The notes beneath the pieces were generated by a model, which saw only the letters and a program-made list of their open reading frames with translations, ran no database searches and was not told the origin of the DNA. The position numbers and the translations under genes were made by a program. A stretch of 64,000 nt of DNA from Desulfosudaceae bacterium (GTDB lineage Bacteria; Desulfobacterota; Desulfobacteria; Desulfobacterales; Desulfosudaceae): the NCBI GenBank assembly GCA_963674745.2, contig CAXXDV010000003.1:832001-896000 (forward strand), read 5' to 3'. Of the stretch, positions 1-10,083 are shown in pieces. How positions within the stretch are numbered: the stretch's first letter is position 1; each line of letters begins with the position of its first letter.

Positions 1-711
1 ATACCAGGCAAACAAAGCGGTTGTCTCCAGTGTGGCAATAAACGTCATGGCGTGCCAGGTGGACAGTGCAGCCAGCAGCGCAAGTGCGGCCGTCACGTAT
101 GCCGAGCGTGAGCCCAGGCGCATGGCGCGAGCCAACAGCCAGAGATGCATGGCGAACAACGGCAGGCTGAAGTCCTCCCGCATGAGAATAAAGCCAATGG
201 TGCGGTAGTTGGCCGTAGTCAATCCGTAAACCAGTGTGGCAAAGGCCGCCCAACCCGGTTTGCCGGTCAGTTCCCGGGTCAGGCCGAACACCCCGATCGC
301 GGTGAGACTGGCAAACAGACTCATTGCCATAACACAGAACACATGAAGCGGCAGATTCCGCCCGAAAAGCCGGTAACTCCAGGCCAGATAAAATTCCTGC
401 CCTACGGTAAACAGGGCCGGCAGATCAACCGCATACGGATGCTCGACGCGATGATCGGCCCGGAAATTATCAGGAGGGAATCCGTTGTTGTCAACAAGAC
501 GGCTGGTCAGGTAAAACAGCAACCCCGGATCCCCCGCCAGTTGGCCTTCGTCATGTTTAACATCAAAACCGGGGGCTGAGCATGTCTGTTGAACACGGAG
601 CAGCGTGCTGCCGGCAATGACCAGCAACAGGACGCAGATGGCGATCCGGGCGGTCCGCGTCTTGTTCTGTCCAAAAATCAACAGATCGTCCTCAGGGGCA
701 TGAAGATGCAT
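1..711 (-). CDS. GT-C fold membrane glycosyltransferase, DPY19/STT3-like (N-terminal part; runs off the window edge)
   Basis: Manual translation from ATG 711 is open to base 1 (237 codons): MHLHAPEDD...TM1...EGQLAGDPGLLFYLT...DHRVEHPYAVDLPALFTVGQEFYLAWSYRLF...YRTIGFILMREDFSLPLFAMHLWLL...LSTWHAMTF; several hydrophobic helices; not in the ORF track. Confidence 0.75.
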   Translation of the reverse strand, partial: MHLHAPEDDLLIFGQNKTRTARIAICVLLLVIAGSTLLRVQQTCSAPGFDVKHDEGQLAGDPGLLFYLTSRLVDNNGFPPDNFRADHRVEHPYAVDLPALFTVGQEFYLAWSYRLFGRNLPLHVFCVMAMSLFASLTAIGVFGLTRELTGKPGWAAFATLVYGLTTANYRTIGFILMREDFSLPLFAMHLWLLARAMRLGSRSAYVTAALALLAALSTWHAMTFIATLETTALFAWY

Positions 712-739
712 GTCTGAATCTGCCGTATACAGAACTGTA

Positions 740-1375
740 TCAGATATCAAAAAAGCTGCCGGCCCCGCCTTCAACATAGATGTCGGCGTGACGCTGGCGG
801 ATTTCAGTTATGTGCTGGGTACAGTGGGTGGGGCAGACCAGGTCCAGCCCGTTCAGTGCGTCAAAATTATCAAAGCCGTGCAGCCCCCCGATCAGTGACG
901 TGACCTTTCCGACTGTACCGGCTGCGGTCAGAATATTTTCCACGCCTGGGTGGGAACATCCGGTAACGACTACCGTCTGGCCTTTCTGCTTGATAACCAG
1001 GGAATGTTCGATCCCAGCCAGGGTGCCGGTAGACCAGATGTTTTCATGGATTTCCTGTGGTTGTTTTCCGATACGCATTTCCGATACGTTTTTCGTCGGC
1101 TGAAACGTGTCGGGCAGGAACCAGGTAGACTGGTTGGCACCGGTGATGGCCTCCAGACCGCCGGTATGGTCCCAGTGATCATGGGAAATAAAAATGTCGG
1201 TAATGTCTTCCGGACGAATCTCAAGGTACTTCATGTTGTTAATCAGTATGCTTCCATTGGCGCCGGTGTCAAAAAGAATCTTCCTGTCAAAGGCTTCTAC
1301 CAGGCAGGCAAATCCCCAGTCTGCCGCCAGACGCCGGTCACGGGTGGTATTATCGTAGATGATGGTGATTTTCAT
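740..1375 (-). CDS. MBL-fold metallo-hydrolase
   Basis: ILFDTG, SHDHWDHTGG (HxHxDH), GCSHPG, GGLH and PTHCT motifs. Confidence 0.9.
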   Translation of the reverse strand: MKITIIYDNTTRDRRLAADWGFACLVEAFDRKILFDTGANGSILINNMKYLEIRPEDITDIFISHDHWDHTGGLEAITGANQSTWFLPDTFQPTKNVSEMRIGKQPQEIHENIWSTGTLAGIEHSLVIKQKGQTVVVTGCSHPGVENILTAAGTVGKVTSLIGGLHGFDNFDALNGLDLVCPTHCTQHITEIRQRHADIYVEGGAGSFFDI

Positions 1376-1633: not shown

Positions 1634-2749
1634 ATGAAGATTGCCACTTTATATATCGATCCGGATGCTGAAGGGTACCAGGAGACGGAAAACGTAAGAA
1701 AAAGAATCCACGCGGACAGAGAAATCGTGGCTTCTCCTCATGACGTTTTCAAAGCTGTTTCCCAGGCTGATGATGTGGTCAAAACGGGTAAACAAACGCT
1801 TTTTCTGACCGTCAACAGGGGACCGTTTATCCGGAGATGCCCGGGAACCCGTTATTATCGGTGCTGCGGTTATCAGATTTTAAATATTGCCCGTTTTTGT
1901 ACCATGGACTGCTCTTATTGTATCCTTCAGGCTTATTTTCATCCGCCGCTACTCCAGTATTATGTCAACCAGGAAGATATGGCGCTTGAGCTGAATGCCC
2001 TCTTTGAGAATTCAGACCGGATCATGCGTATCGGTACCGGAGAATTTACCGACAGCTCCATCTGGAACGACTGTACGGATCTGAACCGACGTCTGGTTAC
2101 GATGTTTGCCGCTCAGGACAGCTGTATTCTGGAGATCAAAACAAAAACCGTGAATATTGAACCCCTCCGTGATGTTGCTCATAACCGGAAGACCATTGCC
2201 GCCTGGTCACTGAACACGGAGTTGGTGATCGCCGGTCAGGAACGCGGTTCGGCTTCACTGACCGAGCGACTGGAAGCCGCTGCCGACTGCCAGGCCATGG
2301 GTTACCCCCTGGCTTTTCACTTTGACCCCCTGATTGTCTATGATGGTTGTGAGGATGATTATTCAGGGGTAATCAAACGATTATTCGACGCGGTATCGCC
2401 GGATAATATTGTCTGGATCAGCCTGGGCTCATTTCGTTTCATGCCGGATTTAAAACCCCTCCTCCATCAACGGTTTCCAGATTCAAAAATTATTTACGGT
2501 GAATTCATCACCGGCCTGGACCGGAAAATGCGTTACTTCAAGCCGCTTCGCATCGAGCTTTACCAGTCGATCATTGCCGATATCAGGCGCTATGCCGCGA
2601 ATGTAACGCTCTATTTTTGTATGGAAGATGACGATGTCTGGAAACAATGCCTGGGGTTTGTCCCCGGGGATAAAGGCGGTATCCCGGCTATTCTCGACCG
2701 AAGTGCGGTTATGCACTGCGGTCTGGATCCGCGAAAACTTAACCGTTGA
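1634..2749 (+). CDS. Radical SAM protein, spore photoproduct lyase (SplB)-like family
   Basis: CTMDCSYC (CxxxCxxC), RIGTGEFTDS, EIKTK, AFHFDP, YFCME. Confidence 0.85.
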   Translation: MKIATLYIDPDAEGYQETENVRKRIHADREIVASPHDVFKAVSQADDVVKTGKQTLFLTVNRGPFIRRCPGTRYYRCCGYQILNIARFCTMDCSYCILQAYFHPPLLQYYVNQEDMALELNALFENSDRIMRIGTGEFTDSSIWNDCTDLNRRLVTMFAAQDSCILEIKTKTVNIEPLRDVAHNRKTIAAWSLNTELVIAGQERGSASLTERLEAAADCQAMGYPLAFHFDPLIVYDGCEDDYSGVIKRLFDAVSPDNIVWISLGSFRFMPDLKPLLHQRFPDSKIIYGEFITGLDRKMRYFKPLRIELYQSIIADIRRYAANVTLYFCMEDDDVWKQCLGFVPGDKGGIPAILDRSAVMHCGLDPRKLNR

Positions 2750-2764
2750 AATAAGGAACATCGT

Positions 2765-3379
2765 ATGCTGCCCCAGGTGTATTCGGTTAAATGGAAATCC
2801 TTCTTTCTGGCGTTGCTGGTGGCGTTTTATACCGGCGGCTATCTGGGGATCAACTGGCTTAATGATTATCGGAGCCGTTATTACGATGTTTCCTTGTGGT
2901 TCGAGAAGGATATCCCCTTTGTCCCGTCAATGATTATCGGCTATTCATTTGTGTTTCTTCTGGTGGTCATCCTTTTTCTGGTCATTGACAATATGCCTGA
3001 TTTCTGGGATATCTGCCGCCGTTTTCTGATCATGACGTTGATCTGTTTTGCGATTTTTCTGCTGTTTCCGGTACGCATGAAGTTTCGTCCCGCCGTGGGC
3101 GTGGGGCAAGACTGGATAACCGAACTGGTCAGTTTTTATTTCTGGATGGACAAACCTTATAACCTTTTCCCCTCCATGCATCTGGCGGCTTCCTTTTTTG
3201 TCGCTTTTTATTGTGTGCGCAAGGGGAAGATTATCGGTTGGGTTACAATGACCATGGCGACCGTTGTCGGTGTCTCGGTGGTGCTGCTGAAACAGCATTA
3301 CATAATGGATGTGGTGGCCGGGTTCACGGTGGCCTGGTTCTGTTCGTTTTTTTCATGCAAGTATTTTAAACGCGCATAA
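2765..3379 (+). CDS. PAP2-superfamily membrane protein (IPC-synthase/phosphatase-like)
   Basis: Multi-TM; NLFPSMH and QHYIMDV motifs. Confidence 0.8.
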   Translation: MLPQVYSVKWKSFFLALLVAFYTGGYLGINWLNDYRSRYYDVSLWFEKDIPFVPSMIIGYSFVFLLVVILFLVIDNMPDFWDICRRFLIMTLICFAIFLLFPVRMKFRPAVGVGQDWITELVSFYFWMDKPYNLFPSMHLAASFFVAFYCVRKGKIIGWVTMTMATVVGVSVVLLKQHYIMDVVAGFTVAWFCSFFSCKYFKRA

Positions 3380-5987: not shown

Positions 5988-7643
5988 ATGACGCATCGAT
6001 TATATCTCAAACCCTTTTTCTTGTTTCCGGTCTATTTTATCTTCGCCATTATTCTTACCTGGCCCCTCCTGGCTAATATTTCTACTGTTATCCCCATCGG
6101 CACGGAACGAACCACGACCATACCGCTGTTCGGCCTCTGGACCCTGCTCTGGAACGCGCAGCAGGTTCCCGACCTGTTCCAACACTATTGGAATGCGCCG
6201 ATCTTTTATCCTGTTGAAGGGACATTTGCTTTTTCCGAAACCATGCTGCCTCAGGGCATTGTCTTTGCCGCCGGTGTTTTTCTTATTAATGACCCATTGC
6301 GGGTTTACAATCTCATGCTTTTGTGCTGCCTGGCCTTGAACGGGATGGCCGCTTTCAGTCTCCTGCGCAGAACCGGCACCAGTGATTTTCCGGCCGTTAT
6401 CGCCGGTCTTTTTGTCGTGGCCCTGCCGTATTCAGCCTATGAAATGGGCGTCTGCCAGCTGATCGTTCTGTTTCCGATTTTTTATTTTTTTTCATATTTT
6501 TATCAGTTCAGCCGCAAGCCAACGTTTAAAAACGCTCTTTTGATGGGGCTGTGGGGAGCCTTGTTATCGCTCTCCTGCAGCTACTATGGCCTGTTTCTGT
6601 CTTTTTTTGCCGTTCTGGGGGCGGCTTGTCTTTTTAACCGGACAGTTTTTACCTTCAGGCCGCTTTTTTATCTGGTTTGCGGGGTCTGTCTGGCCGCGTT
6701 GGCCGTGAAGCCGGTTTTGTTCACCCAGCTCAAAATTACGTCCGGCTTTACCCATGGCGCCTCGGTCACACATTTGCAAAGCTGTCGCCCGGCTGATTAC
6801 CTGGCGCTGGCGCCGATTCTTTTTGGTGCTCATTTCCTTCCCTGGCTTGGAGGCAGCAGGGCTCTCCATCCCATGTATCCCGGAACCGGTTTACTGGTTT
6901 TGGCTGTTGCCGGTATCTGGCTGGGCAGGGACAAAGCGCCCCGTTGGGTCCTTTTCTGCACGCTGGGGGTTGTTCTGGCCATGATTTTGAGCATGGCGGG
7001 AAATATCGAAATTGCCGGATGGAACCTGATGAATTTTTTAAAAGGCTTTTTGCCGGGTTTCAAACAATTGCGAAACGCCTTCCGGTTCGGTGTTTTTGTT
7101 CAGATTTTTCTGGTCGGCCTGGCCGGTTTTAGCCTGGAATGGATTTATCGCTCAAGCAGAGGGCGGGGGCCGCTATTGCTGATGCTGATTTTTTTATTAA
7201 GTGTTGTCGAGGTGTTGCCTTTAACCCGGTTAAGGCCTTTGCCGGAATCTACCTTCTCGGCCGATTGGTCGGATTTTCTGGCAAAGCAGCCGGATGGTTC
7301 CGCCGTCATGATTCCAATGGCAGAGGAAAACGAAAGGGTTGACTACAACTATCTACCGATCGTGGTCGGCATGATTCATGCCCTGGATCATGGGAAACCC
7401 TTGTTAAACGGTTTTTCTTCTTTTCGCCCTCCCGAATACCTGGCGCTTAAGGAGACAATAAAACATTTCCCCGCCCCCCCCGGGCCGGGATATTTGTGTG
7501 AACGTGGTGTCGATTATCTTATTGTGGATAAATCGTTTTTAACTGCAGAGATCGTTTCTGACTTAAATCAACGACCGCAGTTCGATCTGCTCTTTGCCGA
7601 TGATAAGATGTCTGTTTACCGGTTAAAATGCCCGGGAAGATGA
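5988..7643 (+). CDS. Polytopic membrane protein, putative GT-C glycosyltransferase
   Basis: More than 10 hydrophobic segments; WNAPIFYP..AFSE loop; C-terminal soluble domain (LLNGFSSF, GVDYLIV). Confidence 0.6.
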   Translation: MTHRLYLKPFFLFPVYFIFAIILTWPLLANISTVIPIGTERTTTIPLFGLWTLLWNAQQVPDLFQHYWNAPIFYPVEGTFAFSETMLPQGIVFAAGVFLINDPLRVYNLMLLCCLALNGMAAFSLLRRTGTSDFPAVIAGLFVVALPYSAYEMGVCQLIVLFPIFYFFSYFYQFSRKPTFKNALLMGLWGALLSLSCSYYGLFLSFFAVLGAACLFNRTVFTFRPLFYLVCGVCLAALAVKPVLFTQLKITSGFTHGASVTHLQSCRPADYLALAPILFGAHFLPWLGGSRALHPMYPGTGLLVLAVAGIWLGRDKAPRWVLFCTLGVVLAMILSMAGNIEIAGWNLMNFLKGFLPGFKQLRNAFRFGVFVQIFLVGLAGFSLEWIYRSSRGRGPLLLMLIFLLSVVEVLPLTRLRPLPESTFSADWSDFLAKQPDGSAVMIPMAEENERVDYNYLPIVVGMIHALDHGKPLLNGFSSFRPPEYLALKETIKHFPAPPGPGYLCERGVDYLIVDKSFLTAEIVSDLNQRPQFDLLFADDKMSVYRLKCPGR

Positions 7644-7745: not shown

Positions 7746-9041
7746 TTATTTGCGGTTGATGCCCAGAATGCTCAAGAAAAAACTGGACAGGATTATCTGA
7801 CATCCCAGTATCATGGCCAGGACGGCCGGAATAACCAGGCGCAGGGTCTGCTGTGGATCCAGGTCGCCAAACGCTTCACTGCCCCAGGTGCCGACGGCAT
7901 ACAGAGAGCCGGCCAGTCCGACGAAAAAAAGGATGCCACCGGTGATAAGACCGCGTTCCAGTGTAAAAATTTTAAAGAGCCGGTTAAAAACGGGATCGGG
8001 GGGCTGAAGGTTTTCCGTCAGAGCGAAAATTTTATAAAATGCGGCAAACAGAATGGATTGAAAACCGATAAACACGGCCGCTGAACAATACAGCAGGGTA
8101 TGGATATCAAAGGTGACGCCCGCGATTGCCCTTGGTCCGGGCAAGAGCCAGAGGCCCGCTACCGCTCCAATGATGAAAAGCAGTATTCCCGGATAGAAAA
8201 AAAGCCATTTTGGACTGTAAAGCAGCATAAACCTTAAATGCCGCCAGCCGTCACGCCAGGTCCGTAAATGCGGCCTCCGGCTCCGTCCGTCCGGGGAGAG
8301 GGTGGTGGGGACTTCCGTAATGCGCATATTCTGAAGCTGCGCCTTGACGATCATTTCGCTGGCAAATTCCATTCCCGTGGTCCGTAGATCCAGCTTTTCG
8401 ATGGCTGTTTTTTTAAATCCTCTCAGACCGCAATGAAAATCACCGATGGGGGCGTTGAAAAACAATCGTCCAATGCCGGTAAGCACCGGATTACCCAGGT
8501 ATTTGTGCAGAAAAGGCATGGCCTGCGGAGAAATACCGCCCTGAAACCGGTTGCCGATCACAAGATCAAACCCTTTACGCAGTTTATCAACAAAACCGGA
8601 CAGCCCTGAGAAATCATAACTTCCGTCAGCATCGCCCATGATAATGAATTCACCGTGAGCGGCTTCAATTCCGCCTGCCAGTGCGCTGCCGTAGCCTTTT
8701 TCCGCTACCTGGACCACGCGCGCGCCGGACCTGGCGGCAATCTCCCGGGAGTCATCAGTGCTGCCGTTGTCCGCGATAATGATTTCACCGTTGATACTGT
8801 TTTCGGAAAGATAGCCACGGGCCTGAGCAATGCAACCGGCCAGCGTTTCCGCTTCATTAAGGCAGGGCATTACGATCGACAGTTCAAGTTTCGTGTCCGC
8901 TTGAGGCACAGGCAACACCAAAGATAAGAAGTTGTTTTTATGATTATTATCAATATCAGTGTCCGCCTCCCAGGTCAATGCTTTTCCCGCATTCGCGTTC
9001 GAGACAAAACCGAACGGCTCGTCTAACGGCCTGAAAACCAT
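7746..9041 (-). CDS. GT2 polyprenyl-phosphate glycosyltransferase (DPM1-like) with C-terminal TM helices
   Basis: SIVMPCLNE, IIADNGSTD, GYGSAL, MGDADGSYD, DFHCGLRGF, MEFASEM, WRDGWRHL. Confidence 0.9.
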   Translation of the reverse strand: MVFRPLDEPFGFVSNANAGKALTWEADTDIDNNHKNNFLSLVLPVPQADTKLELSIVMPCLNEAETLAGCIAQARGYLSENSINGEIIIADNGSTDDSREIAARSGARVVQVAEKGYGSALAGGIEAAHGEFIIMGDADGSYDFSGLSGFVDKLRKGFDLVIGNRFQGGISPQAMPFLHKYLGNPVLTGIGRLFFNAPIGDFHCGLRGFKKTAIEKLDLRTTGMEFASEMIVKAQLQNMRITEVPTTLSPDGRSRRPHLRTWRDGWRHLRFMLLYSPKWLFFYPGILLFIIGAVAGLWLLPGPRAIAGVTFDIHTLLYCSAAVFIGFQSILFAAFYKIFALTENLQPPDPVFNRLFKIFTLERGLITGGILFFVGLAGSLYAVGTWGSEAFGDLDPQQTLRLVIPAVLAMILGCQIILSSFFLSILGINRK

Positions 9042-9159
9042 TGACTCTTTAAGCGCCTCCTGTAATGATCGTCAACAGTAGAAAAACAGCAGTTTGTATT
9101 CGACACCGGGGGCATCTGTCGGGAAACGCTGCTGTGCCATCACTCTGAAAGGAAAAAAT

Positions 9160-10083
9160 ATGAGAACATTTTTTGTAAACGCGGGAATGCTGATGTTAAT
9201 GCTCCTGTTCTTTTATCCTTCGGTCTGCGCGGCGGGTGATGACGAACCGGTATTGATCATATCACCGTTTGTCGAATACCAGTATCACACTGACAAGGGC
9301 GGGGCCGAGGATGTGCTGGATAATATTAATGACCTGGTCGGTGGATGGCTGCGGGGATATAAAGACGTCGAACTTTTTGAACATTTGTGCCTGATAGGCG
9401 CTGAAGTCAGGTTGATGCGGCCTGAACTGCCGAAAGGATTGCATCTTTTCGGCTCGTTAGCGGGCACAACCGGTTCCACGGACATGTTGAATGATGATTA
9501 TGACAAACAGTACGAACTGAACTCCTTTCCGGCCATACCGGGGGTTGTGGATGTAGCGGATTTTCCTTTTGTTGACCTTGATGGCGACATGCGTATCCGC
9601 GTGGATCAGTACCTGGATTATTACATTCCTGTGCAGGTGGGCATCCGGTATGAACCGAAACCGGATAAAACCTTGTCCTGGTTCGGTTCGCTTTCCGGCG
9701 GGGTGCTGTTTTACAAGGGCGGTATGGATATTGACGTTGACATGTCAGGAACTGCCCGGGTCCTGTTAATTAACGGACAGACGTCGGCCTCATACCGGGG
9801 AAAGGTGGAAGTAAAGGATATCGGGTGGATCATGTCCGCCCTGGTCGGTATGCGGTATCACTGGAAGAAGAACCTGACCTCGTCTGTTGCCGTTGGTTTT
9901 GAGACCGGTCGGTTGAGCGATAATGCCGACATAGACGGTAAGTTTTCCGGAAATGTAAGGATCGACTCATCAATTTTTGATTTTGACACCCCTTTTTCAA
10001 TGGATATCGACAGCAGCGAATCGGTTGATCTCCGGACCGACGGCTGGCGTGTGCGGGTAGGCATTATTGAGTGGGCGTGGTAG
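9160..10083 (+). CDS. Exported protein, probable outer-membrane beta-barrel of unknown function
   Basis: SD aaagga before ATG 9160; signal peptide; alternating amphipathic strands; terminal Trp (IIEWAW). Confidence 0.6.
   Translation: MRTFFVNAGMLMLMLLFFYPSVCAAGDDEPVLIISPFVEYQYHTDKGGAEDVLDNINDLVGGWLRGYKDVELFEHLCLIGAEVRLMRPELPKGLHLFGSLAGTTGSTDMLNDDYDKQYELNSFPAIPGVVDVADFPFVDLDGDMRIRVDQYLDYYIPVQVGIRYEPKPDKTLSWFGSLSGGVLFYKGGMDIDVDMSGTARVLLINGQTSASYRGKVEVKDIGWIMSALVGMRYHWKKNLTSSVAVGFETGRLSDNADIDGKFSGNVRIDSSIFDFDTPFSMDIDSSESVDLRTDGWRVRVGIIEWAW

Follow-up and report, generated by a model that had tools for sequence, protein, structure and literature searches.

A putative DPY19-type GT-C glycosyltransferase encoded in a Desulfosudaceae bacterium

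Introduction

Does a bacterium encode an enzyme of the DPY19 type? DPY19, the animal enzyme that puts mannose on tryptophan, is a GT-C fold family and a sister to STT3; its CAZy label is presumably GT98. The question is raised by a minus-strand open frame at the left edge of a 64,000-nucleotide stretch of a Desulfosudaceae genome (the window), which a first-pass annotation, made from the N-terminal part of the gene, had read as a protein glycosyltransferase closer to DPY19 than to PglB. In PMC6801728, protein C-mannosylation is described as confined to metazoa and alveolates. In the passages searched, neither the structure paper of 2023 nor a review from 2026 mentions prokaryotic DPY19 homologues, and a literature search for prokaryotic DPY19 found no paper: the matches to 'PF10034' were Plasmodium gene ids, and Asgard papers were matched without 'DPY19'. 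We put the probability that the gene encodes a genuine bacterial DPY19-family enzyme, one that looks catalytically competent and works by the mechanism proposed below, at roughly 60%.

Results

The ORF listing of the window contained a minus-strand ORF at positions 1..777 whose 3' end was open, so the frame extends past the left edge of the window. From position 711 to position 1 it ran through 237 residues without a stop, and its translation held, in the order quoted in the first-pass annotation, a hydrophobic TM1 (IAICVLLLVIAGSTLLRV), AGDPGLLFY, DHRVEHPYAVDLPALFTVGQEFYLAWSYRLF, YRTIGFILMREDFSLPLFAMHLWLL and LSTWHAMTF; the open frame is thus real. The annotation had called for the full gene, and in the same genome the frame continued to a 646-aa ORF from the first ATG, with 387 codons and the stop lying beyond the left edge (Table 1). 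The ATG at window position 711, giving 624 aa, is likely the true start, because it lies 29 nt past the stop of the upstream gene and because the product would then be as long as most relatives (610-650 aa); the ATG at 777 is an alternative start further upstream. The full protein matched 102 database proteins at E<=1e-3 (best E 1e-267), and the family profile matched 1202 cluster representatives at 50% identity, which places the frame far beyond chance. The GC content of the gene (0.46-0.57) was similar to that of its flanks and of the genome (0.505), giving no composition signal of recent transfer, and a promoter and terminator scan scored no higher than shuffled sequence.

Table 1. Features of the DPY19-like gene and its surroundings; positions are those of the window unless a genome coordinate is given
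Feature	Position	Strand	Basis
DPY19-like GT-C gene, N-terminal 237 codons	1..711	-	Translation; full-length Pfam Dpy19 51.3 bits
646-aa ORF from first ATG (window 777)	G000:C3:830837-832777	-	Own genome
624-aa version, ATG at window 711	G000:C3:830837-832711	-	Own genome
W241-H242 codons, start of TM segment	52..57	-	Alignment to 7zlg, conservation
EL2 motif R192-TIGFIL-M-R-E201 (Rx6[L/M]RE), RTIGFILMRE	175-204	-	Translation, alignment to 7zlg
EL1 acid motif EGQLAGDPGLLFYL	508-549	-	Translation
D83 codon, proposed catalytic acid/base	529-531	-	Candidate counterpart of CeDPY19 Glu71
Predicted TM1, ~residues 42-62 (646-aa numbering)	592..654	-	Family-averaged hydropathy, sequence
Metallo-beta-lactamase-fold gene, 211 aa, upstream, co-directional	740..1375	-	ORF list
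GT2, 431 aa, DPM1/AglJ/PpgS type, polyprenyl-phosphate sugar synthase-like	7746..9041	-	Family-model scores

The scores of Dpy19, STT3 and PMT, the three families that the annotation had set against one another, were then compared, and Dpy19 was favoured at the family level. The sole Pfam family match of the full protein was Dpy19 (PF10034; 51.3 bits vs a gathering cut-off of 27.2), while the 237-aa fragment alone reached 21.3 bits, under the cut-off. Dpy19 also matched 44/44 relatives (best E 5e-22). STT3 (PF02516) did not match the full protein at E<=10 and matched a single one of the 44 relatives (E 0.48); PMT (PF02366) and PMT_2 (PF13231) did not match the full protein either, and hit 1/44 (E 1.5) and 2/44 relatives (E 0.0057), respectively. 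No STT3 match was found in the source genome, the control search being positive in 4 archaea; the control search for Dpy19 was positive in 0/14 well-known genomes.

Among solved structures, the family profile matched C. elegans DPY-19 (CeDPY19, 7zlg) at E 4e-17 and STT3B at 0.65. Profile positions 124-613 aligned with chain residues 170-678 of 7zlg (~490 positions), and the full-length E-values placed DPY19 ahead of STT3 by ~17 orders of magnitude. Detection was by profiles only, as a single-sequence phmmer search of the PDB did not find DPY19. Counting against a simple reading, the N-terminal third alone matched STT3A better (E 2.5e-4), with DPY19 absent from its list at E<=10. The profile of a sister class that carries TPR repeats matched 7zlg at E 2.2e-21, and this class and the shorter class were homologous end to end (hhalign E 8.8e-88).

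The motifs pointed the same way. The annotation had named a C-terminal WWDYG motif as a mark of the STT3 alternative; it is absent, WWD occurring in 0/186 family members vs 8/8 PglB-type proteins of the same phylum, which served as the positive control. Its reading of a DPY19-like RE(D/S)F in place of DxD/E also held, with R-x6-M-R-E-D here vs Rx6DNE in STT3, and two of the DPY19 motifs that it had listed are present in the 7zlg chain, as ATRVQWTPPLRESFAFPF and FWQFTQF. Pfam, the 7zlg profile score, the lack of WWD and the Rx6MRED motif thus agree that the protein is closer to DPY19 than to PglB. It is a member of the DPY19 family and lacks the hallmarks of an oligosaccharyltransferase (OST) of the STT3/PglB type.

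Functional residues were mapped through the family-profile alignment to 7zlg and are numbered as in the 646-aa version; counts come from 185 sequences (166 shorter and 19 longer). PMC6801728 defines Rx6LRE as the EL2 motif of DPY19 and reports the DPY-19 mutants R211A, E220A and R471A as inactive. The corresponding residues are conserved: R211 is R192 here (166/166 shorter, 18/19 longer), E220 is E201 (185/185), and R471 of the short EL6 is R439 (185/185). Trp262 of CeDPY19, which forms a hydrogen bond with the Dol-P-Man phosphate, corresponds to W241 (185/185), within an STWHAM motif that the translation places at window positions 46-63 on the minus strand. H375 and K383 correspond to H347 and K355 (184/185 each). 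The known catalytic residues are apparently intact.

The acid of EL1 was D or E in 185/185 sequences (D in 163 and E in 3 of the shorter; E in 16 and D in 3 of the longer). D83 lies 21 residues past TM1, ahead of a hydrophobic stretch, and E77 precedes it by six residues, the same spacing as that of E65 and E71 in CeDPY19. It aligns with an invariant Glu of the TPR class, and the Pfam Dpy19 match spans the EL1 acid motif in 4 members. HMMER alignments to CeDPY19 began at about chain residue 160-170 and never reached EL1, whether full, N-terminal or long-class profiles or two single members were used. On position, motif spacing and conservation, D83 is a candidate equivalent of Glu71. In published work, E71D retains ~80% activity and human DPY19L4 has a natural Asp at the Glu71 site, which makes D83 acceptable as a catalytic residue.

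In the C-terminal domain, the peptide-sensor loop HPHYE...R of DPY19 was matched by QPK(Y/W)E...R (Q539-P540-K541-Y542-E543...R548), with P576, Y578, E579 and R584 of CeDPY19 falling on P540, Y542, E543 and R548. Position 542 was aromatic in 166/166 shorter members (Y in 118, W in 44, F in 4), and K541 and E543 were each kept in 166/166. Published text describes the His575-Arg584 loop of DPY19 as making strong contacts with the peptide that is bound. Part of the tryptophan pocket, in contrast, is not conserved (K473, and probably Y395 and F401). Lys473, which makes a cation-pi contact with Trp+3, is not kept and aligns with V441 (V, L, I or A across the family), and Leu474, which forms the Trp+3 pocket's floor, aligns with V442. 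Y395 and F401 of the EL5 cage around Trp(0) fall on N367 and A373 in a gapped loop where the alignment is unreliable, and three invariant aromatic residues, F371, W377 and F381, are near by, within 4-10 residues. F264 of CeDPY19 aligned with Ala. The loss of K473 weakens the claim of WxxW-sequon recognition, not family membership, and the partly non-conserved pocket leaves tryptophan C-mannosylation plausible but unproven. The hydropathy profile is compatible with 13 TM helices, of which TM4 and the division between TM11 and TM12 were assigned by eye, and with an EL1 that is long, an EL5 of 46 aa, an EL6 that is minimal and a C-terminal domain of 160 aa; the basic stretch QNKTRTAR before TM1 suggests a cytoplasmic N-terminus.

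The upstream metallo-beta-lactamase-fold gene is possibly co-transcribed with the DPY19-like gene; as a partner it showed no synteny in relatives. Neighbourhood clustering of relatives found no conserved operon or glycosylation operon around family genes; sulfatase, sigma-54 activator, GGDEF and enoyl-CoA hydratase genes recurred in these neighbourhoods. The GT2 encoded in the window scored 124 bits for AglJ, 85 for PpgS and 76 for Dol-P-hexose transferase, all under the curated cut-offs, and its role as the source of the donor for the DPY19-like enzyme is speculative. The genome is rich in GT2s that resemble polyprenyl-phosphate sugar synthases. A scan covered 28 of 30 GT2 ORFs (L096 and L123 offered no suitable ORF and were left out), and not one of the 28 reached an NCBIfam cut-off. 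TSP_1 repeats (TSR domains, known DPY19 substrates) were found nowhere in the genome in a search whose control also matched nowhere. WxxW-rich proteins were likewise not found in the genome, the maximum being 4 motifs per protein, with 320 WxxW motifs observed genome-wide vs 223 expected. Elsewhere in the same genome lies a TPR-bearing DPY19-like paralog, of a class that joins a GT-C membrane module to periplasmic TPR repeats. In TMTC enzymes, TPRs go together with protein substrates.

The family is rare and patchy, found mostly in Planctomycetota; the gene is carried by ~100 species genomes, and the family occurred in 6/41 relatives, 2/301 genomes of a phylum sample and 6/201 of a Planctomycetota sample. 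It comprises ~1200 clusters of 'hypothetical proteins' outside NCBI's family library.

Discussion

These results point to a membrane enzyme of ~13 TM helices whose active site would face the periplasm; given the bacterial host, an undecaprenyl carrier and a periplasmic active site are presumed. The donor would be a polyprenyl (undecaprenyl)-phosphate hexose, synthesised by a genomic DPM1/AglJ-like GT2 and then flipped, which may enter through a tunnel at EL5, the loop with the invariant H347, K355, R374 and W377-x-x-x-F381. Its phosphate would be gripped by R439 (EL6), R192 (EL2) and W241, the EL1 carboxylate of D83 would act as acid/base, and the ~160-aa C-terminal periplasmic 'dome' would shut over the acceptor by means of its QPK(Y/W)E...R loop. 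The most likely acceptor would be an exported protein, within a stretch that is unfolded, and aromatic (Trp) C-glycosylation is the leading candidate chemistry, plausible on sequence grounds but unproven. We infer from these features the identity of the donor, the role of D83, the protein or tryptophan acceptor and the topology, and likewise that the enzyme works on protein or tryptophan or uses mannose. More tentative, and in our view rather doubtful, is the wider proposal that DPY19-type enzymes with undecaprenyl-phosphate hexose C-glycosylate Trp or another aromatic residue of exported proteins in some bacteria, namely a few Planctomycetota, Myxococcota and Desulfobacterota, and that eukaryotic DPY19 descends from a prokaryotic lineage between STT3 and DPY19, with an STT3-like N-terminal module and DPY19-like catalytic loops and dome.

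An enzyme of the same family and with the same lipid-linked donor might instead act on a non-protein acceptor, either a glycan of the envelope or a glycolipid, in the manner of ArnT or the Emb/Aft arabinosyltransferases. The partial loss of the peptide and Trp pocket (Val in place of K473; Y395 and F401 unmatched) is in keeping with such an acceptor, as are the absence of a substrate-like neighbour or conserved operon and of TSR or WxxW-rich proteins in the genome, with the reservation on the TSR control given above; the structure paper adds that the dome core is also common to bacterial arabinosyltransferases. Against it, the peptide-contacting loop QPK[Y/W/F]E...R is the best-conserved C-terminal block, and the TPR repeats of the sister class are protein-binding modules. 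We regard a non-protein acceptor as a serious minority reading, itself on the unlikely side.

A divergent STT3/PglB/AglB OST, N-glycosylating Asn in N-x-S/T sequons, could account for the STT3A match of the N-terminal module and for the bacterial STT3-like clusters among the Atlas feature neighbours. An hhalign comparison with 8 PglB-type proteins was collinear over 402 columns and set R192, E201 and R439 on the catalytic Arg, Asp and Arg, but its probability was only 15% (E 1.7e-3), and a hydrophobic residue occupies the place of the first Asp of DxD/DNE. Together with the Pfam STT3 score, the absence of WWD and the full-length E-values, this DxD loss largely refutes an OST, which is scarcely credible here. 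The chance is slim, too, that the gene is a non-catalytic relic or scaffold that retains the GT-C fold for a structural or regulatory role: its patchy distribution would suit a relic, but the mappable residues essential in DPY-19 are kept across 185 diverse members (with the one exception at R192 among the longer sequences), which argues for purifying selection on catalysis. The reading of the gene as a bacterial DPY19-family enzyme is therefore the one we prefer.

A bacterial clade with the residues essential in DPY-19 offers a simple, probably expressible system for GT-C C-glycosyl transfer, allows testing for Trp C-glycosylation in bacteria and provides an outgroup for the divergence of DPY19 and STT3. 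The family assignment also gives a name to the ~1200 hypothetical-protein clusters.

Comparison with known systems

With DPY-19 and human DPY19L1-L4 (PF10034; 7ZLG/H/I/J), the bacterial family has in common Rx6(L/M)RE, the Arg in EL6, the Trp that binds phosphate, H375/K383 and the loop of the dome. DPY19 has no WWD motif, as here, and its paralogs carry D or E as the EL1 acid, as the bacterial family does at the candidate position. The carrier of DPY19 is dolichyl-phosphate and its active site faces the ER lumen, whereas the bacterial enzyme presumably uses undecaprenyl-phosphate and faces the periplasm. Compared with CeDPY19, the EL1 of the bacterial family is apparently ~30 residues shorter, and RLLWQGPF in EL5, D521 and E201-D202, invariant in the bacterial family, are not seen in CeDPY19.

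STT3, PglB and AglB (PF02516) share the GT-C architecture of 13 TM helices and a soluble C-terminal domain, the topology being predicted here, as well as the scaffold of EL2 Arg, EL2 acid and EL6 Arg. The WWD(Y/H)G of STT3 is absent from the bacterial family, in which A-A-D521-F stands at about that hhalign position, and the first Asp of the STT3 DxD/DNE is M or I, which leaves E201, the second acid, as the one retained. The long paralog class resembles TMTC1-4 and bacterial GT-C/TPR proteins in that a GT-C module is followed by extracytoplasmic TPRs; the TMTC module is of the PMT type whereas that of the long paralog is of the DPY19 type, and the gene in the window itself is a DPY19-like enzyme without TPR repeats.

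Gene model and family assignment

The first-pass annotation had read TM1 followed by AGDPGLLFY, DHRVEHPYAVDLPALFTVGQEFYLAWSYRLF, YRTIGFILMREDFSLPLFAMHLWLL and LSTWHAMTF in a minus-strand frame, and these motifs were all present in this order in the translation of bases 1-711 (-) (237 residues; coordinates re-checked). The ORF listing of the window gave 1..777 (-) with an open 3' end, and extension of the frame beyond the left edge yielded a full ORF of 646 aa from the first ATG, to which residue numbers refer. The ATG at window 711 gives 624 aa and lies 29 nt past the stop of an upstream metallo-beta-lactamase (MBL)-fold gene; because 624 aa matches the usual length among relatives, it was taken as the putative start.

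Pfam Dpy19 (PF10034) was the sole family matched by the full protein (51.3 bits; curated cut-off 27.2), and the fragment visible in the window scored 21.3 bits, under this cut-off. In the NCBIfam search, no model covered the protein. A word-indexed protein search returned 102 relatives at E <= 1e-3, called 'hypothetical protein' at source in every named case; by our own count, 85 carried a precomputed PF10034 match. In an exhaustive profile search, 1202 cluster representatives matched the family profile at E <= 1e-3; 850 of these were still within a limit of 1e-10, and 583 within one of 1e-30.

The proposal that the protein is closer to DPY19 than to oligosaccharyltransferases (OSTs) of the STT3/PglB type was supported at family level. 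Pfam Dpy19 matched 44/44 diverse relatives (best E 5e-22), compared with 1/44 for STT3 (E 0.48), 1/44 for PMT (E 1.5) and 2/44 for PMT_2 (E 0.0057). The 44-sequence profile matched the structure of C. elegans DPY-19 (CeDPY19, 7zlg) at E 4e-17, with profile 124-613 on chain residues 170-678, versus E 0.65 for STT3B. At the C-terminus, where the WWDYG motif had been singled out for checking, the OST hallmark WWD occurred in 0/186 family members versus 8/8 PglB-type controls.

Three results ran against this. DPY19 was absent from the PDB matches when the single protein sequence was the query; a profile of the N-terminal third (residues about 40-255, window 1-711 (-)) found STT3A at E 2.5e-4 and other STT3s, with DPY19 not listed at E <= 10; and when eight PglB-type proteins of the same phylum were compared with the family profile to profile, the match was collinear over 402 columns but weak (probability 15%, E 1.7e-3). 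Together, these results indicate a common STT3/DPY19 scaffold in the lineage. Judged from sequence, the N-terminal module looks somewhat STT3-like and the protein as a whole is far closer to DPY19; in evolution, the family may stand between the two.

Family-averaged hydropathy revealed TM1, an 83-aa extracytoplasmic loop (EL1), a series of hydrophobic segments, a 46-aa EL5 holding H347, K355 and RLLWQGPF, and a soluble C-terminal domain (dome) of about 160 aa after the last TM. The long hydrophobic block after EL5 was read by eye as TM11, a minimal EL6 with R439, and TM12. This layout fits the 13-TM STT3/DPY19 plan, with TM4 and the TM11/12 split placed by eye.

Conservation of the DPY-19 active site

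PMC6801728 lists as DPY-19 motifs ExE after TM1, Rx6LRE in EL2 (Rx6DNE in STT3) and a conserved Arg in EL6; in its account, R211A, E220A and R471A abolished activity, E63A lowered it, and E65A and E400A had no effect. PMC10154233 assigns the acid/base role to Glu71 (E71D is still about 80% active, and the residue is Asp in human DPY19L4) and phosphate holding to Arg471 and Trp262. It places Trp(+3) between Arg211 and Lys473 and Trp(0) in a cage of Tyr395, Phe401 and Tyr578, with the indole NH bound by the Pro576 carbonyl and the peptide sensed by loop His575-Arg584, and describes catalysis as metal-independent (PMC10154233).

We read the CeDPY19 counterparts from a profile-to-7zlg residue alignment (HMMER) and counted conservation over 185 aligned family members, 166 under 720 aa and 19 longer.

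CeDPY19 residues, their aligned counterparts in the window's protein, and conservation in the family
CeDPY19	Counterpart	Conservation
R211	R192	166/166 shorter, 18/19 longer
E220	E201	185/185
W262	W241	185/185
F264	A243	Phe not conserved, Ala here
H375	H347	184/185
K383	K355	184/185
R471	R439	185/185
L472	L440	
K473	V441	Lys not conserved, V/L/I/A in family
L474	V442	
P576	P540	
Y578	Y542	Y118/W44/F4 of 166
E579	E543	166/166
R584	R548	

K541 was likewise present in 166/166 shorter members. Y395 and F401 fell on the non-aromatic N367 and A373 in a gapped loop of the HMMER alignment; three invariant aromatic residues, F371, W377 and F381, are found near these positions.

EL1 of CeDPY19 was not aligned by HMMER in any profile/member comparison, and no direct counterpart of Glu71 was obtained. 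D83, in the motif L-x-S-D-P-x-L-L-Y-Y, sits 21 residues past TM1 and directly before a hydrophobic stretch, the site at which PMC6801728 places the DPY19/STT3 acid. This position was D163/E3 in the 166 shorter sequences and E16/D3 in the 19 longer ones. A partly conserved acid, E77, lies six residues upstream, reproducing the E65-to-E71 spacing. The Pfam Dpy19 match begins 3-5 residues before the D83 motif and spans it in four members, consistently at about profile position 36, and hhalign placed D83 within six residues of the invariant EL1 Asp of PglB-type proteins. The circumstantial case for D83 as the candidate counterpart of Glu71 is good, though short of proof.

A TPR-bearing paralog and the probable acceptor

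The same genome encodes a second Dpy19-family protein (Pfam 58.7 bits) with TPR repeats at its C-terminus. Its class is homologous to that of the window over 597 columns (hhalign E 8.8e-88) and slightly nearer to CeDPY19 (E 2.2e-21 versus 4e-17). In a 16-sequence alignment, the TPR-class residue aligned to D83 was an invariant Glu within W-T-E-x-A-F. The paralog lies among GT-C/TPR membrane proteins in an island (locus L127) that also contains an FKBP isomerase, two B12-radical-SAM genes, a GDSL hydrolase and two large ORFs without a Pfam match. The island resembles a cluster of TMTC-like enzymes for protein glycosylation in the periplasm.

Locations of genes discussed in the text (the window is G000:C3:832001-896000; locus L127 is positions 2206001-2226000 of the same contig, G000:C3, outside the window)
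Gene	Location	Strand	Remark
SPL-like radical-SAM gene	window 1634-2749	+	divergently upstream of MBL/DPY19-like pair
PAP2-superfamily membrane phosphatase gene	window 2765-3379	+	divergently upstream of MBL/DPY19-like pair
ORF without Pfam match	window 5988-7643	+	551 aa; flanks GT2
GT2, DPM1/AglJ/PpgS-like	window 7746-9041	-	431 aa
ORF without Pfam match	window 9094-10083	+	329 aa; flanks GT2
PMT-family GT-C	L127:417-1979	-	paralog island
AglJ/ArnC-like GT2	L127:5834-6625	+	paralog island
DPY19-like/TPR paralog	L127:8334-10643	-	769 aa
Membrane+TPR protein	L127:10660-12210	-	paralog island
DUF6056+TPR protein	L127:15732-17981	+	paralog island

In the mechanism we propose, a DPM1/AglJ-type GT2 would load a hexose onto polyprenyl phosphate at the cytoplasmic face, and the lipid-linked sugar, once flipped, would reach the periplasmic site beneath EL5. 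There the phosphate would be bound by R439, R192 and W241, D83 would act as acid/base, and the dome loop QPK(Y/W)E..R would shut over the acceptor. The window's genome has 32 GT2 matches, several of them, including the one in the window, most like AglJ, PpgS or dolichyl-phosphate hexose transferases; none of the scanned GT2s reached the curated cut-off, and no sugar was assignable from them.

Two observations favour a protein acceptor (probability about 0.55-0.6): conservation in the dome is highest in the element that corresponds to the loop with which DPY19 senses the peptide, and TPR repeats occur in the sister class. Within this reading, aromatic C-glycosylation as in DPY19 is the leading candidate, of fairly low probability overall, and the absence of K473 argues against the canonical WxxW sequon.

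Genomic context and distribution

The DPY19-like gene follows the MBL-fold gene co-directionally and is convergent with a DUF6909 gene. PAP2 enzymes include polyprenyl-pyrophosphate phosphatases; no functional link was found between the window's PAP2 gene and the DPY19-like gene. In the neighbourhoods of relatives, none of the MBL, DUF6909, radical-SAM or PAP2 genes was conserved beside their copies. Beyond the window's left edge, two overlapping ORFs (AFOR_N 294 aa and AFOR_C 329 aa; L004:4816-6686, G000:C3:826816-828686) together encode an aldehyde:ferredoxin oxidoreductase; the split could mark a pseudogene or stem from a frameshift or from recoding.

Of 106 pattern-matched stretches in species-representative genomes, 103 encoded a relative, and the 80 best of these were retained. 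Sulfatase genes in the Planctomycetota loci lay <= 6 kb from the DPY19-like gene in 22/80 loci (L005-L084; e.g. L015:7875-9395), adjacent in 10, and five carrier genomes had 15-82 sulfatase matches each; the loci are not independent, and any enrichment is at most weak. A second family copy in one Planctomycetota genome (G340:C2:503324-505190) is matched as two segments, profile 8-536 and 529-621, that adjoin each other in separate open frames, which points to a frameshift or a misassembly.

The gene is rare. It was found in 6/41 relatives of the window's genome: in 5/12 within its own taxonomic family, and in none of the order's 28 further families that were sampled. It occurred in 2/301 genomes sampled from the window's phylum and 6/201 from that of a Planctomycetota carrier (<= 6 candidates scored per genome). 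The 77 short-class tree rows comprised 61 Planctomycetota, 6 Myxococcota, 1 Thermodesulfobacteriota, 1 Pseudomonadota and 8 unlabelled. The Pseudomonadota row, a MAG labelled Glaciecola (L031), has a copy nearly identical to that of a Planctomycetota MAG (L028; end branches 0.08 and 0.06), which probably reflects a binning error rather than a true occurrence in Pseudomonadota. When a FastTree tree was rooted with the long class, the protein of the window paired with that of a Thermodesulfobacteriota MAG; the pair belonged to a clade of seven rows that included Myxococcota (support 99) and fell within Planctomycetota diversity. This nesting, in a quick tree with long branches, hints at horizontal spread; the base composition of the gene gave no sign of recent transfer.

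Relation to known DPY19 enzymes

Literature searches found no paper on prokaryotic DPY19 homologues, yet the PF10034 match for such proteins is already precomputed in public protein collections. We therefore regard this protein as a bacterial form of the known DPY19 kind of enzyme, of interest mainly in that the mapped catalytic set appears intact here.
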